Part shown: piece after piece, positions 51,751-63,373 of the stretch
Position numbering within the stretch: position 1 is the first letter of the stretch
How the letters are laid out: every line of letters begins with the position of its first letter
Origin: a virus
Reading direction: 5' to 3' (one strand)
DNA length: 64,000 nucleotides
IMG/VR virus record: IMGVR_UViG_3300047678_000169
Location: 16,239-80,238 of that record
Program-made: the position numbers and the translations under genes
The notes under the pieces: model-generated
The model's database searches: none
Seen by the model: the letters and a program-made list of their open reading frames with translations, nothing else
Told to the model about the DNA's origin: nothing

Positions 51751-51836
51751 TGGTAGCCGTGGTGGGATTCGAACCCACAGAGGATAAGACGTTTTAAGTG
51801 TCTCGGTTGTAGCCAATTTCCCTAATCCACACGGCC
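51751..51836 (-). tRNA. tRNA-Leu (UAA), non-canonical split-variable-arm form
   Basis: GGAU-UA insertion after U8; AUCC in the variable region. Confidence 0.8.
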
Positions 51837-51992: not shown

Positions 51993-52646
51993 TCAAAGAT
52001 GTTCCAATTTGGATTGAACTTTCTTAATGTCCATCTTATGAAGCTTGAAAAATGCTATCATCGAAGCTGGAGCCAAAAATGTCATGTATTGGTCAGGAAC
52101 AATTGATGTCAACTGAACCAATGCGTTCTTTAGAGCTTCATTCTGAATGAAGTTCGGTAAATTTTTGAGAAGAATGATTAGAACCATCAACACAATCGGC
52201 CAAATTCCTTTGGACATTAATGGATTGTAGCTCTTCACAATGGAACTGAATCTAGCATTGTGTATCTTCATCAATTTAACTGGAATTGATGGGTGTAAAA
52301 TCAAAATTTGCTTGAATACTTCTTGATTGAAAATTGCGACCTTCATTGGAGTTATCGAAACGATAGAAGCACTTCTTGGTGTTCCTGACAATAGCGACCC
52401 TTCTCCAATCAAATCATGAGGCTTGAGGATAATCTTGGCCGGTTTTCCAGCTTTCAATACTTGAGCCTTTCCCTCTAAAACGAGATACATTGAGTCTCCG
52501 GTGTCTCCTTCAACAATGAAGGTGACGCCAGTGGAATATTCTTTGATTTCACACAATGCCGCAACCTTTTTTAAGGTGGGATGTGGAACGTCTGAGAAAA
52601 GAAATCCTTTACTCAATTCGTCTGGAGTAGTGGTCAATTTTGGCAT
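51993..52646 (-). CDS. Cyclic-nucleotide-binding domain protein with C-terminal TM segments
   Basis: EGDTGDSMYLVLEG, GEGSLL...PRSAS phosphate-binding cassette; no HTH. Confidence 0.88.
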   Translation of the reverse strand: MPKLTTTPDELSKGFLFSDVPHPTLKKVAALCEIKEYSTGVTFIVEGDTGDSMYLVLEGKAQVLKAGKPAKIILKPHDLIGEGSLLSGTPRSASIVSITPMKVAIFNQEVFKQILILHPSIPVKLMKIHNARFSSIVKSYNPLMSKGIWPIVLMVLIILLKNLPNFIQNEALKNALVQLTSIVPDQYMTFLAPASMIAFFKLHKMDIKKVQSKLEHL

Positions 52647-54032: not shown

Positions 54033-54124
54033 TGGTAGGCGTAGCTGGACTTGAACCAGCACTCGGCACCTATCAGGTGCGCCAGGTTTATAAAACCTGC
54101 GGTGCTACATTACACAATACGCCC
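54033..54124 (-). tRNA. tRNA-Ile (UAU) with a long variable arm
   Basis: CAGGU UU UAU AA ACCUG; V arm GCAC-CUGAUAG-GUGC. Confidence 0.8.
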
Positions 54125-54215: not shown

Positions 54216-54290
54216 TGGCTGCCCCCCAGCGAATCGAACGCTGATAAACCGAGTCAAAGTCGGCGATAATAACCGTTATATGAGAGAGCA
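54216..54290 (-). tRNA. tRNA-Gln (UUG)
   Basis: CU UUG AC loop, G73-CCA. Confidence 0.85.
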
Positions 54291-55088
54291 ATGTTTCTTA
54301 ATCTTCGGAACAACGATATGGTGTTCACGGCAAATTTCTTTTAAACGATTTGCACTTACACCATACAATTTTCCCAATTTTCGTAGAGAAGTTTTTGTTA
54401 CTTCGTCGGAAAGTTTTTTGAGGGAGTCGTCGTTCCATTTAATTTTTTGATTCCGTTTTTGTAGAGGAATGTTGACAACAAGTAACCCACAGATTTTTCT
54501 CAACTGGTGTTGGGTTATTCCGTGTTTTTTCTTAATGTCACTACAAGTTAACGTTAAACAATCTTGTCTAAATTCATCGGAGTCAAACCTATCTATGTAG
54601 ACTTTGTTCAACTTTAGATTAGAAGACTTCCCAGCGTATGTCGCTGTTTGTGAATGGCAATTTGGACACAAAAAACACAAATTTTCTATACGATTGTCTC
54701 TGTGGTTTCCGTTTTTATGTTCTAGCTGTAAAACTATAAGCTTGTTTCTCCATTCCGTTGTCAGTCCACATTCACATTTATACGGAACCAAATTAAACCT
54801 CAATATTAAGTTCTTTACTGTATTTGTGTTGGTATTACTATTCTCAACAAATACACTCTTACTCGCTTCATACAACGACCATTGACGATGTGTAAACTTT
54901 TTTCCCTTGTTTGATTTCAAATGCTCGGAATTTATTTTTAAAAATTCAATTCTTCTTTTAAGCGTCTTGTTATTAGCTCCCCTCGGTGGGAGGCCACATT
55001 TAATCAATACATCGGAATAAGATTTAGATTCCAGAACTATCTTTGTAAATTCTATATCACTTGTTTCGTAAATTCTACTGGTTTTCAT
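54276..55088 (-). CDS. HNH homing endonuclease
   Basis: CECG..W..LQLEHKNGNHRDNRIENLCFLCPNCHSQT; start MKTSR after TACTTAT. Confidence 0.88.
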   Translation of the reverse strand: MKTSRIYETSDIEFTKIVLESKSYSDVLIKCGLPPRGANNKTLKRRIEFLKINSEHLKSNKGKKFTHRQWSLYEASKSVFVENSNTNTNTVKNLILRFNLVPYKCECGLTTEWRNKLIVLQLEHKNGNHRDNRIENLCFLCPNCHSQTATYAGKSSNLKLNKVYIDRFDSDEFRQDCLTLTCSDIKKKHGITQHQLRKICGLLVVNIPLQKRNQKIKWNDDSLKKLSDEVTKTSLRKLGKLYGVSANRLKEICREHHIVVPKIKKHCSLI

Positions 55089-55162
55089 ACGCTTATAAGT
55101 ATGTAACGGAAGAACCAAAACGTAAATTATTTTACGCTTCCATTACACAATCGGGGAGCGTA

Positions 55163-56044: not shown

Positions 56045-56607
56045 TGGTGGACTAGTCGGTTATCACCCGAACACGCGATTTAGCTGGATTGCATTACTGG
56101 TTAATCGCCATCGTAGCCCGTAAATAGTGGACGTTCGGGACTCGAACCCGTATCTCTCTCCTCATCTGTCTTCACATCGGAAAGCGTGTTGCCATATCTT
56201 GGCGGAAGTTGCCTCTACACCAGACGCCCATAAATTAGTGACAAATCAGGCAGAATCGAACTGCCGCCCTATTTGATTCTGCACCAGCAGAAATAGCGGA
56301 ATCGAACCGCCCGAATCCTCATCGAGAGGATGTGCTACCATTACACCATGTTTTGTCAAAGTGGTGCGTTCGGAAGGAATCGAACCTTCGCCTGCTTACG
56401 CTGGTTACGCGTCGCCCTTCCAACATGGGCCTTGATACAAGTGCTTACCGCCTTCGAAGAGCAGAGTCACGTTCAACCATTTCCGCCACAAACGCAAATT
56501 GGTGAGTTACAGGAGGATTTGGCACCTCCACGAAGTTATTCCGCCGCTAACGGCAATGCTATTACCTTCGACCCCTTAAAGGCTGCGTCTTCTTCCGCCA
56601 TACACTC
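56045..56607 (-). ncRNA. Run of five aberrant tRNA-like RNAs (56045-56119, 56126-56229, 56237-56357, 56362-56495, 56500-56607)
   Basis: Each has paired ends and a T-arm-like hairpin but a non-canonical interior. Confidence 0.6.
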
Positions 56608-57796: not shown

Positions 57797-57871
57797 TGGT
57801 GGCCCGAGTGGGATTTGAACCCACAACCGTTCGACTATCAATCGAGTGCTCTAACATTGAGCTATCAGGCC
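57797..57871 (-). tRNA. tRNA-Ile (GAU)
   Basis: UU GAU AG loop. Confidence 0.88.
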
Positions 57872-58001: not shown

Positions 58002-58151
58002 TGGAGCCGATGATGGGAGTCTAACCTAGCAGATGAATTAGCTAACTTTGTCCAACTAATCAACATGTATTTTCATTGGGAGCTACCATTCCTTTCTACG
58101 ACATTTTCTTCAACTTAGAAAGTTGATGCTCTATCCTTGAGCTACACCGGC
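58002..58151 (-). tRNA. 150-nt tRNA-Arg (UCU)-like RNA with a large variable-region domain
   Basis: Normal acceptor, D and anticodon arms; ~75-nt insert. Confidence 0.7.
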
Positions 58152-60182: not shown

Positions 60183-60256
60183 TGGCCGGGCCAGAGGGAT
60201 TCACACCCCCATCTTCACCGTAAATGGTGGAGTTCTAAATGTTAAACTACAGCCCG
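60183..60256 (-). tRNA. Degenerate tRNA (6-nt anticodon loop)
   Basis: Acceptor and CCA intact; no D-loop GG; altered T loop. Confidence 0.5.
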
Positions 60257-61482: not shown

Positions 61483-62127
61483 TTATACTCTTCCTTTTCT
61501 GAATCCTCTTGGGAGCGAATCGGTTTTTAGAACTAACTTGCTAACAAGTCCGTTGGTAATCCAATGTTTTCCAAACGACGGATTTTTCTTACCGTCAAAC
61601 ATTCCTTGTTTTGCATCGCTCATTTTCTTTTTTGTTTCTTCTGAATGTTCTTTTCCTTGGAATGGATTTCCGTTTATAGACTGATATAACAGACTTCTAT
61701 TTGATAGTTTTTGAGTAAATTCTATTCTAAATTGTTCGTCGGTTTTATATTTATCCCACAATTTATTCGCCGCTGCCTTACCCATTTTTGTGTAGTGTTC
61801 TTTGGAACGATTTACTTTGTTTCCATTTTTTCCAGTTGAATTGATGTAATCATACCCACCATTTCCTCCTAATTTGATGTTGTATGTGTCATCTCTGGCA
61901 ATAAATTCTTCATCAACTATGTCGGTTTCTTTTTGGTTCATTTCTTCTTCCGTATTACACTCAAAAAGCAACTCTTTGACAAAGTGTTCTTTTCCATGTT
62001 TCTCTACTGCCCGACCAAGCAAAACTCCAGAGCCAAAATACTCATCGTCTTTGTTTTCAGTTTTGTGTTTTCCGACGTAAATTTTATTGTTCAGTTTATT
62101 GGTAATTTTGTAAATCAAGTAGTGCAT
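61483..62127 (-). CDS. Seg-like GIY-YIG homing endonuclease
   Basis: YLIYKITN..IYVGKH..YFGSG, YNIKLGG, NUMOD3 HSEETKKKMS. Confidence 0.9.
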   Translation of the reverse strand: MHYLIYKITNKLNNKIYVGKHKTENKDDEYFGSGVLLGRAVEKHGKEHFVKELLFECNTEEEMNQKETDIVDEEFIARDDTYNIKLGGNGGYDYINSTGKNGNKVNRSKEHYTKMGKAAANKLWDKYKTDEQFRIEFTQKLSNRSLLYQSINGNPFQGKEHSEETKKKMSDAKQGMFDGKKNPSFGKHWITNGLVSKLVLKTDSLPRGFRKGRV

Positions 62128-62467: not shown

Positions 62468-63013
62468 TCAAAGTTGTTCTTTGAGTTTCGTAAATCTTTT
62501 ATAATTTCCGCCTTTTGGCGTTAATCCCACTTTGATGAGAGCCTGTCTTATTGACGACGAATTTTTTAGAGCTTCAATCGCTTCATTGTCAGTAACTCTT
62601 TTACAAGAACGTTTATTTCGACCTCTCCAAGTCGGAGTAATGCTATGACAGTTTGGACAAATTGCTATGTAATTTTCTCTCGTGTAGTTGTCGTGATTTC
62701 CGTCAACGTGGTCAAGTTCTAAAGCCAATCTGTGACCCAGCCACTCAGTCAATTTACACTTTCCACATGCTCCACCTTGTTCTTCTATACATCTATCTCT
62801 CTTCTTCCACAAAGTCAGAGAATCAAAGTCAGCTGACAATAACTTTTGTTTCCAAGTATCTTTTACTTTTTCTATTCTCTTGGTTTCGGTTTTTTGTCTT
62901 GACGATGCTATCTTTGTTTTGTATTCCAAATATTTCTTTGGGTCAGATTTTAGATTATCTAGCCAAGTATAATAACCACTTCTTATTTTATCTTTTGTTT
63001 CTTGAGTGTGCAT
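62468..63013 (-). CDS. HNH homing endonuclease
   Basis: CGKC..WLG..LELDHVDGNHDNYTREN..ICPNCHS. Confidence 0.88.
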   Translation of the reverse strand: MHTQETKDKIRSGYYTWLDNLKSDPKKYLEYKTKIASSRQKTETKRIEKVKDTWKQKLLSADFDSLTLWKKRDRCIEEQGGACGKCKLTEWLGHRLALELDHVDGNHDNYTRENYIAICPNCHSITPTWRGRNKRSCKRVTDNEAIEALKNSSSIRQALIKVGLTPKGGNYKRFTKLKEQL

Positions 63014-63076: not shown

Positions 63077-63160
63077 TGGTGGTGTCGGTGGGACTCGAAC
63101 CCACGATGTTTGTATTTCGGCTTAAAAGGCCGAACCAATCGCCGCTATGGGGACGACACC
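63077..63160 (-). tRNA. tRNA-Lys (UUU) with an extended variable region
   Basis: CU UUU AA loop; 12-nt V region. Confidence 0.8.
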
Positions 63161-63286: not shown

Positions 63287-63373
63287 TGGTGCTCCGGGAG
63301 CGACTCGAACCCCCGTTGGTTATTACACATCGGCTTAAAAGGCTAAACTATTCGCCGCTATAGGAACCGAAGC
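63287..63373 (-). tRNA. tRNA-Lys (UUU) with an extended variable region
   Basis: CU UUU AA loop; 15-nt V region. Confidence 0.72.

Follow-up and report, generated by a model that had tools for sequence, protein, structure and literature searches.

The tRNA-Ile(UAU) gene and its setting

The window, by which we mean the whole stretch of 64,000 nucleotides that was analysed, forms the final 64 kb of an 80-kb contig from an uncultured large phage. It encodes GroEL, a Dda-like helicase, many homing endonucleases and a tmRNA, and its minus strand carries more than 33 tRNA genes at 49-64 kb. ARAGORN called 33 tRNAs, all but one of which are drawn with an encoded CCA. The positions of the features discussed below are collected in Table 1, together with four Rfam tRNA matches that have no ARAGORN call and several protein-coding genes that lie inside the tRNA array.

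The gene under study is a 92-nt tRNA-Ile(tat) according to ARAGORN, and it scores 43.6 bits with the Rfam tRNA model RF00005, for which the gathering score is 29. The ARAGORN drawing shows a cloverleaf that includes the T loop and the acceptor stem. The bases UU lie between the acceptor 5' strand and the D arm, and CG between the D arm and the first anticodon arm. This first, decoding arm has U34 and a G29-C41 pair, and it is followed by a second arm that presents GAU and has a C29'-G41' pair (primed numbers refer to the second arm); the C4-G69 pair is present in the acceptor stem. The earlier note had described a tRNA-Ile(UAU) with an extra arm, GCAC-CUGAUAG-GUGC, and ARAGORN, Rfam and the sequence all bear this out. 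Its description of that arm as ending in a 7-nt loop of the anticodon type holds for the layout but needs a qualification for this copy, where the flanks may close to a GAU triloop: because the C-G and U-A flanks of the loop can pair, RNAfold predicts a 6-bp stem with GAU alone at the tip.

Table 1. Positions of the tRNA-Ile(UAU) gene, its parts and other features of the window
Feature	Position	Strand	Basis
Whole tRNA-Ile(UAU) gene, with encoded CCA	54033..54124	-	ARAGORN; Rfam RF00005
Acceptor 5' strand GGGCGUA, partner 54037-54043; G1.U72 and C4-G69	54118..54124	-	Sequence, ARAGORN drawing
D arm GUGU-AAUGUA-GCAC; short loop containing one G, as in the tRNA-Ile(GAU) of the window	54102..54115	-	
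First (decoding) anticodon arm CAGGU-UUUAUAA-ACCUG; UAU at 54092..54090; G29-C41	54083..54099	-	
2-nt spacer GC separating both arms	54081..54082	-	
Second arm GCAC-CUGAUAG-GUGC; GAU at 54074..54072; C29'-G41'; flanks closable to a GAU triloop	54066..54080	-	
5-nt linker CGAGU, same length as a class I variable loop	54061..54065	-	
T arm GCUGG-UUCAAGU-CCAGC	54044..54060	-	Sequence, ARAGORN drawing
Acceptor 3' strand UACGCCU, discriminator A73, encoded CCA	54033..54043	-	Sequence, ARAGORN drawing
Ordinary class I tRNA-Ile(GAU), loop UUGAUAG, C29-G41; comparison gene	57797..57871	-	
tRNA-Met(CAU), 85-86 nt, 3-bp arm with GUAA tetraloop	53599-53684	-	
tRNA-Trp(CCA), 85-86 nt, 3-bp arm with GUAA tetraloop	61392-61476	-	
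tRNA-His(GUG), 85-86 nt, 3-bp arm with GAAA tetraloop, C73	62182-62267	-	
tRNA-Lys(UUU), 84 nt, unstructured variable region	63077-63160	-	
tRNA-Lys(UUU), 87 nt, unstructured variable region	63287-63373	-	
tRNA match without ARAGORN call, 131 nt; large insert, intron-like or extended arms	56365-56495	-	Rfam
tRNA match without ARAGORN call, 147 nt; large insert, intron-like or extended arms	58005-58151	-	Rfam
tRNA match without ARAGORN call	51754-51836	-	Rfam
tRNA match without ARAGORN call	60186-60256	-	Rfam
Phage tmRNA, tag peptide AKRNLAKLNVLTLLRKAKNVGAAMAVAA	37723-38127	-	
HNH/other homing-endonuclease gene in the tRNA array, directly upstream of the Gln-Gln-Ile(UAU) trio; 15-nt overlap with tRNA-Gln(UUG)	54276-55118	-	
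HNH/other homing-endonuclease gene in the tRNA array	61483-62127	-	
HNH/other homing-endonuclease gene in the tRNA array	62468-63013	-	
217-aa protein with cyclic-nucleotide-binding domain, inside the tRNA array	51993-52646	-	PF00027 (56.7 bits)

Conservation of GAU and covariation of the second arm

The chance of finding GAU in any one loop is, by our estimate, roughly 5-8%, and higher if any Ile anticodon is allowed. Since its presence in a single loop is thus not significant alone, relatives were gathered without specifying GAU, by three motif scans of IMG/VR whose pattern was limited to a UAU anticodon loop separated by a long gap from a T loop. ARAGORN called at least 126 long (88-96 nt) tRNA(UAU) genes in the three scans, one of which alone yielded 83 such genes in 119 loci among the matches listed; with the window copy this makes at least 127 genes and at least 105 distinct sequences. 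Two cultured-phage copies were removed by the T-loop filter and stand outside the 105-sequence set.

A hairpin finder blind to GAU placed this triplet at the apex of the second arm in 97 of the 105 distinct sequences among the matches listed, and in a further 2 of the 105, which are register ties, GAU is also at the apex. The non-GAU cases among the matches listed comprise one GAC (L212) and five unrelated loops (the L082 group, L272, L279, L305 and L307). A replicate IMG/VR scan, with the tRNA in 106 of 120 loci among the matches listed, gave GAU in 61 of 68 distinct sequences among the matches listed, 39 of the 68 being new. The sequences were also clustered at 80% backbone identity, using the rest of the molecule (single-linkage at 70% or 60% fused nearly everything), and GAU was kept in 40 of the 48 clusters among the matches listed. 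The earlier note had proposed conservation of this triplet among long-armed phage tRNA-Ile(UAU) genes as a check on its idea, and the triplet is conserved on a covarying stem; an unconserved loop, the outcome it had named as fatal to the idea, is clearly contradicted by the cluster count.

To score covariation of the stem, one representative of each of the 48 clusters among the matches listed was aligned with MAFFT, blind to structure. All four pairs of the second arm change on both sides, with 91.1% of cells paired, and none of 500 shuffles matched the covariation score, which is a joint score for the second arm and the T arm. The loop bases around GAU vary: position 32' is C or U, 33' is A, U or C, 37' can be any base and 38' is mostly A or G. 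The nearest relatives of the window copy among the matches listed, L302 (84% backbone identity) and L163 (74%), both have the second loop UAGAUUG where the window has CUGAUAG, so that the loop flanks covary in this lineage. On this sequence evidence, the GAU in the extra arm of the tRNA(UAU) family is more than chance.

Other parts of the molecule are conserved to different degrees among the matches listed. A73 is found in 105 of 105 family members and the 2-nt spacer in 70 of 105; C4-G69 occurs in only 31 of 105 and is therefore not a trait of the family. The window copy has the UAU arm, the short spacer, the 4-5-bp GAU-tipped arm, the 5-6-nt linker and A73. As minor points, 50 of the 105 sequences among the matches listed, the window copy included, begin the acceptor stem with a G.U wobble pair, and CCA is encoded in 64 of the 105.

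Searches by other routes for close relatives of the window copy gave little. The window tRNA region and a 1251-aa protein had no match in the phage collection (megablast, tblastn), blastn with the window tRNA returned T-arm fragments only, and blastn with L163 had no match. An exact anticodon-stem scan produced a single match, to an unrelated class I tRNA, and a locus search by the neighbouring peptidase protein found no relatives.

The second arm is like the anticodon arm of tRNA-Ile(GAU) in its 4-5-bp stem, its usually 7-nt loop, the central GAU and the C29-G41 pair, and the second loop of the window copy is equal to that of the tRNA-Ile(GAU) of the same phage at six of seven positions. C29-G41 belongs to the reported bacterial Ile identity elements, the others being A73, C4-G69, G or L at 34, A35, U36, t6A37 and A38 (PMC9976931, in excerpt). 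The equivalent pair, C29'-G41', is present in the second arm of 83 of 105 viral copies, 62 of 68 copies from the replicate scan, 70 of 93 bacterial copies and 35 of 48 cluster representatives, in each case among the matches listed. With the same limitation to the matches listed, C29-G41 occurs in 44 of 49 distinct tRNA-Ile(GAU) genes of the same bacterial arrays, in 100 of 599 other tRNAs of those arrays and in 23 of 155 other tRNAs from the viral flanks and the window. The first, decoding arm has it in only 14 of 105 viral copies and in about half of the bacterial ones (49 of 91), again among the matches listed.

The likeness has its limits. In the second arm position 33' is mostly A and not U, 37' is not fixed as A, and the 31'-39' pair is mostly C-G, whereas it is A-U in the tRNA-Ile(GAU) of the arrays; the arm also sits in the variable region, and the anticodon arm of tRNA-Ile(GAU) under the D stem. 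When the second arm was deleted in silico, a callable class I tRNA-Ile(UAU) was left in 100 of the 105 sequences among the matches listed, and deletion of the first arm with the spacer left a callable tRNA-Ile(GAU) in 47 of 105, including the window copy. The second arm can thus be recognised as a copy, with some departures, of the anticodon arm of tRNA-Ile(GAU).

The ability of nearly half of the sequences to yield a tRNA-Ile(GAU) in this way fits an arm duplication, and the arm might be nothing more than the remnant of such an event or a class-II-like scaffold, that is, a structural brace in which GAU is kept for folding. The flanks that covary as paired in the window lineage, leaving a GAU triloop, agree with this, as do the extra arms on further tRNAs of the window array. 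However, GAU is still kept in many lineages among the matches listed in which the flanks (A/A, A/G, A/C or C/U) cannot pair, hairpin apices are normally unconstrained in sequence, and the braces of the neighbouring tRNAs are made of 3 bp and GNRA tetraloops, with no GAU. A purely structural role is, we think, unlikely.

Extra arms of other tRNAs and the meaning of AUA

Class II tRNAs (Leu, Ser and Tyr) likewise carry a further stem-loop after the anticodon arm and before the T arm. As controls we used the Leu, Ser and Tyr tRNAs of the same loci and of the window, 25 of which were folded out of at least 32 distinct. Among the matches listed, the loop of the second arm is 7 nt long in 73 of 105 family members and the 3' linker 5-6 nt in 78 of 105, whereas the class II control arms have a 3-4-nt loop in 23 of 25 cases and a 1-3-nt 3' linker in 25 of 25. 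With 5 nt, the linker of the window copy falls outside the class II range. In its layout (short spacer, 4-5 bp, 7-nt loop, 5 nt) the extra arm of the family corresponds to an anticodon arm with a class I variable loop behind it.

Five other window tRNAs with class I anticodons are also over-long, and none of the five displays its own anticodon in the extra arm, so within the window the GAU arm is specific to the UAU tRNA. The 3-bp GNRA arms of the tRNAs for Met, Trp and His resemble the arms of the phage's own tRNA-Leu, and the variable regions of the two tRNA-Lys(UUU), 12-15 nt long, have no predicted structure.

Two groups of unusual tRNAs invite comparison. The nematode nev-tRNA-Ile(UAU) combines an extra stem-loop with UAU, as here, but nev-tRNAs are eukaryotic and Leu-charged, whereas the window tRNA comes from a phage and has a second arm of the 7-nt loop type, a conserved triplet and a 5-6-nt linker (PMC3333845, in excerpt). 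The allo-tRNAs, thought to be SerRS substrates (Mukai et al. 2017, PMC5389517, in excerpt), share with this family a long extra arm, a common UAU anticodon and an occurrence in Acidobacteria and phages; as described in the same excerpt, they differ from it in their 8/4 or 9/3 acceptor/T branches and in having mostly G73 or U73. We reject membership of the allo-tRNAs for the present family on account of its 7-bp acceptor stem, 5-bp T stem and A73. We also rejected the idea that the gene had recently descended from one of the Leu or Ser tRNAs encoded in the window: the best identity, 0.68 with an approximate query slice, was to Arg(CCU). An intron or spliced insert was rejected by reasoning, the hairpin being 15-19 nt long and without group I features.

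The same comparisons bear on whether the tRNA might be charged with another amino acid, by LeuRS (as is nev-tRNA-Ile(UAU)), SerRS or TyrRS, so that AUA would be recoded. A long extra arm together with A73 would suit such a substrate, nev-tRNA(UAU) is leucylated in vitro (PMC3333845, PMC4300185, both in excerpt), and allo-tRNAs often have UAU (PMC5389517, in excerpt). The arm geometry, however, is unlike that of the Leu, Ser and Tyr arms of the same arrays, SerRS needs G73 where this family has A73, the acceptor/T branch is 7/5 and not 8/4, and the conserved GAU would be left unexplained. Codon usage also argues against recoding. AUA makes up 313 of 1216 Ile codons (26%), or 17.6 per 1000 codons, in 62 ORFs of the window. 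At nine AUA positions of an epimerase, 15 homologues gave I 0.30, L 0.18 and S 0.04, and at its Leu-codon positions they gave L 0.46 and I 0.03; at the two AUA codons of GroEL, four solved homologues have I, M, V, M and I, I, V, I, and never L or S. Small as these samples are (nine epimerase and two GroEL positions), AUA in this phage appears to fit standard Ile decoding and not Leu or Ser recoding, which makes mischarging very unlikely in our judgement.

Distribution and a possible role in recognition by IleRS

The same five-arm tRNA is present in Sinorhizobium phage Phosso (PV764938), where it is annotated as tRNA-Ile(tat), and in the Synechococcus phages S-SRM01 (MW015081) and S-SKS1 (HQ633071), where the copies are unannotated and adjoin tRNA-Met(CAU) and tRNA-Leu(UAA). 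These three have the design of the window tRNA, with the second loop CAGAUUA or CCGAUUA, but belong to a separate sub-lineage, in which the D arm is a mini one and the anticodon stem has 7 bp. This sub-lineage is large (L015-type, L203 and L204, including cyanophages) and has a 4-bp D stem and a UGGU loop; in L086 the neighbouring tRNA-Met has the same mini D arm.

A scan of bacteria with one genome per species found long tRNA(UAU) in 95 of 120 loci among the matches listed; its pattern included GAT, and it therefore has no bearing on the conservation of the triplet. Most of the bacterial loci among the matches listed are densely packed tRNA arrays in Acidobacteriota MAGs (Pyrinomonadaceae, Blastocatellia and Bryobacterales), other carriers among them being Acidithiobacillus, Nostoc, Rhodobacterales, Polynucleobacter, Prevotella and more. 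Plain MFE folding gave a clean five-armed cloverleaf, with 7 bp in the acceptor stem and 5 bp in the T stem, for 12 of 15 bacterial examples among the matches listed. The five-arm tRNA-Ile(UAU) family is abundant, with members in cyanobacterial and rhizobial phages and in many Acidobacteriota arrays, and it is partly unannotated in published phage genomes. In three of the Acidobacteriota arrays (L330, L437 and L334) the long tRNA(UAU) adjoins a 91-92-nt paralogue, for which the ARAGORN call is Ile(AAU) or a 4-base anticodon (aaaa); the anticodon loop of the paralogue is odd, and its extra arm lacks GAU.

The stable presence of the family in bacterial chromosomal arrays also speaks against the nuclease decoy raised in the earlier note; the nuclease lured away would be one of the host that cuts tRNA-Ile(GAU) in its anticodon loop. 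All that recommends a decoy is that the arm looks like the anticodon arm of this tRNA, a decoy has no need to be joined to a working AUA decoder, and our literature searches found no Ile-specific anticodon nuclease; we regard a decoy as highly improbable.

TilS scored above the curated cut-off in all five tested bacterial genomes that hold the long tRNA(UAU), from which it follows that the tRNA adds to the lysidine route and does not replace it. The earlier proposal that UAU decodes AUA without TilS accordingly needs rewording, to a route beside TilS and not instead of it. In the window, no TilS or IleRS was found in the 48 scanned ORFs of at least 150 aa (58 listed), which says little given that the contig comprises only 80 kb of a larger genome.

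The statement of the earlier note that tRNAs with U34 are generally poor substrates of IleRS has published backing: with E. coli IleRS, a UAU variant reaches 1.1% of the charging efficiency of LAU, L being lysidine (Taniguchi et al. 2013, PMC3575796, in excerpt). According to the same excerpt, species bearing tilS keep an IleRS Trp that stacks on the wobble base, a UAU tRNA misreads AUG on E. coli ribosomes, and in M. mobile charging is solved on the side of the enzyme, by Arg865 of IleRS. A 2026 paper reports that reading of the anticodon is needed for the aminoacyl-transfer step itself, and that in the S. aureus IleRS1 complex the tRNA's own U33 contacts U36 (PMC13752280, in excerpt). A mobile tRNA(UAU) meets whatever IleRS its host has, and because U34 is poorly handled it would be badly charged. 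The class I tRNA-Ile(UAU) of M. mobile and the class I tRNA(UAU) of phages share UAU, A73 and TilS-independent reading of AUA with the present family; M. mobile has an adapted IleRS (PMC3575796, in excerpt), whereas here it is the tRNA that has an extra arm, with GAU and C29'-G41'.

We propose, with a probability of about 0.5, that the window tRNA is a TilS-independent decoder of AUA as Ile, and that its GAU arm mimics the anticodon arm of tRNA-Ile(GAU) to recruit IleRS. In the body of a class I tRNA-Ile(UAU), the fifth arm follows position 43 and precedes the 5-nt variable loop. The extra arm would give IleRS the G34-A35-U36 and C29-G41 signals that are missing from the decoding arm, and the UAU arm would decode AUA on the ribosome. 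It is because the second arm could supply these two signals that the five-arm tRNA may be an IleRS substrate. Both IleRS as the reader of the GAU arm and the manner of its docking are parts that we infer.

Several observations count against this reading. About half of the bacterial copies carry C29-G41 in the first arm as well. The predicted triloop of the window sub-lineage, where the flanks covary as paired, would depart from an anticodon loop. Class I phage tRNA(UAU) without an extra arm is abundant (99 of 121 loci among the matches listed), so the arm is no general requirement. The putative mimicry is also imperfect at 33' and 37', though t6A37 and A38 are identity elements.

In the canonical complex of a class I synthetase, an arm in the variable region lies away from the anticodon-binding domain of IleRS. 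Since the GAU arm would not be at that domain, either a non-canonical docking or an exchange of arms must be assumed. For the exchange, the two arms are topologically interchangeable, the order being D stem, 1-3 nt, UAU arm, about 2 nt, GAU arm, 5-nt loop and T stem, so one can picture a two-headed, bistable tRNA in which the GAU arm would lie under the D stem on IleRS, with the UAU arm bulging out, and the UAU arm would take that place on the ribosome. We consider such a switch rather doubtful; if it were true, identity and decoding would be read from two anticodon arms of one tRNA.

That GAU is conserved where 33', 37' and 38' are unlike those of a genuine Ile anticodon loop could also mean that a partner other than IleRS reads the arm. 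Candidates are an enzyme modifying the UAU loop, a device on the ribosome against misreading of AUG, a factor encoded by the phage or the array, or pairing with an AUC/GUC-type sequence such as the anticodon of tRNA-Asp. The misreading of AUG by a UAU tRNA (PMC3575796, in excerpt) would pose a second problem besides charging, and the GAC of L212 is, like GAU, an Asp codon. Yet GAC occurs in only 1 of 105 sequences among the matches listed, no candidate partner was found beside the gene within the window, and C29'-G41' together with GAU is the exact signature of an Ile anticodon arm. Another reader of the arm has, in our estimate, a low probability.

If the arm is a handle for IleRS, the family would be a natural case in which reading by the synthetase is split from reading by the ribosome through a dummy anticodon arm. 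This would explain how an AUA decoder of phages and mobile arrays needs neither TilS nor an altered IleRS, and the dummy-arm principle could be useful for engineering orthogonal or recoded tRNAs. Full-text searches of the openly accessible literature turned up no tRNA-Ile(UAU) described as having an extra arm tipped with GAU. Such an arm is absent from the excerpted text of a review of non-canonical tRNAs (PMC7609411), the allo-tRNA paper (PMC5389517), papers on tRNA arrays (PMC4758250, PMC8421152) and a survey of cyanobacterial tRNAs (PMC6933170), and a paper on a Sinorhizobium jumbo phage lists tRNA-Ile(UAU) as phage-specific, with no description of a GAU arm in the excerpt (PMC11242549).

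A last observation concerns the ordinary tRNA-Ile(GAU) genes of the bacterial arrays (loci L324-L443). U is near-universal at position 33 of tRNAs. Among the matches listed, 25 of 49 distinct genes have C at this position, with the loops UCGAUAA (14), CCGAUAA (8), CCGAUUA (2) and ACGAUAA (1).
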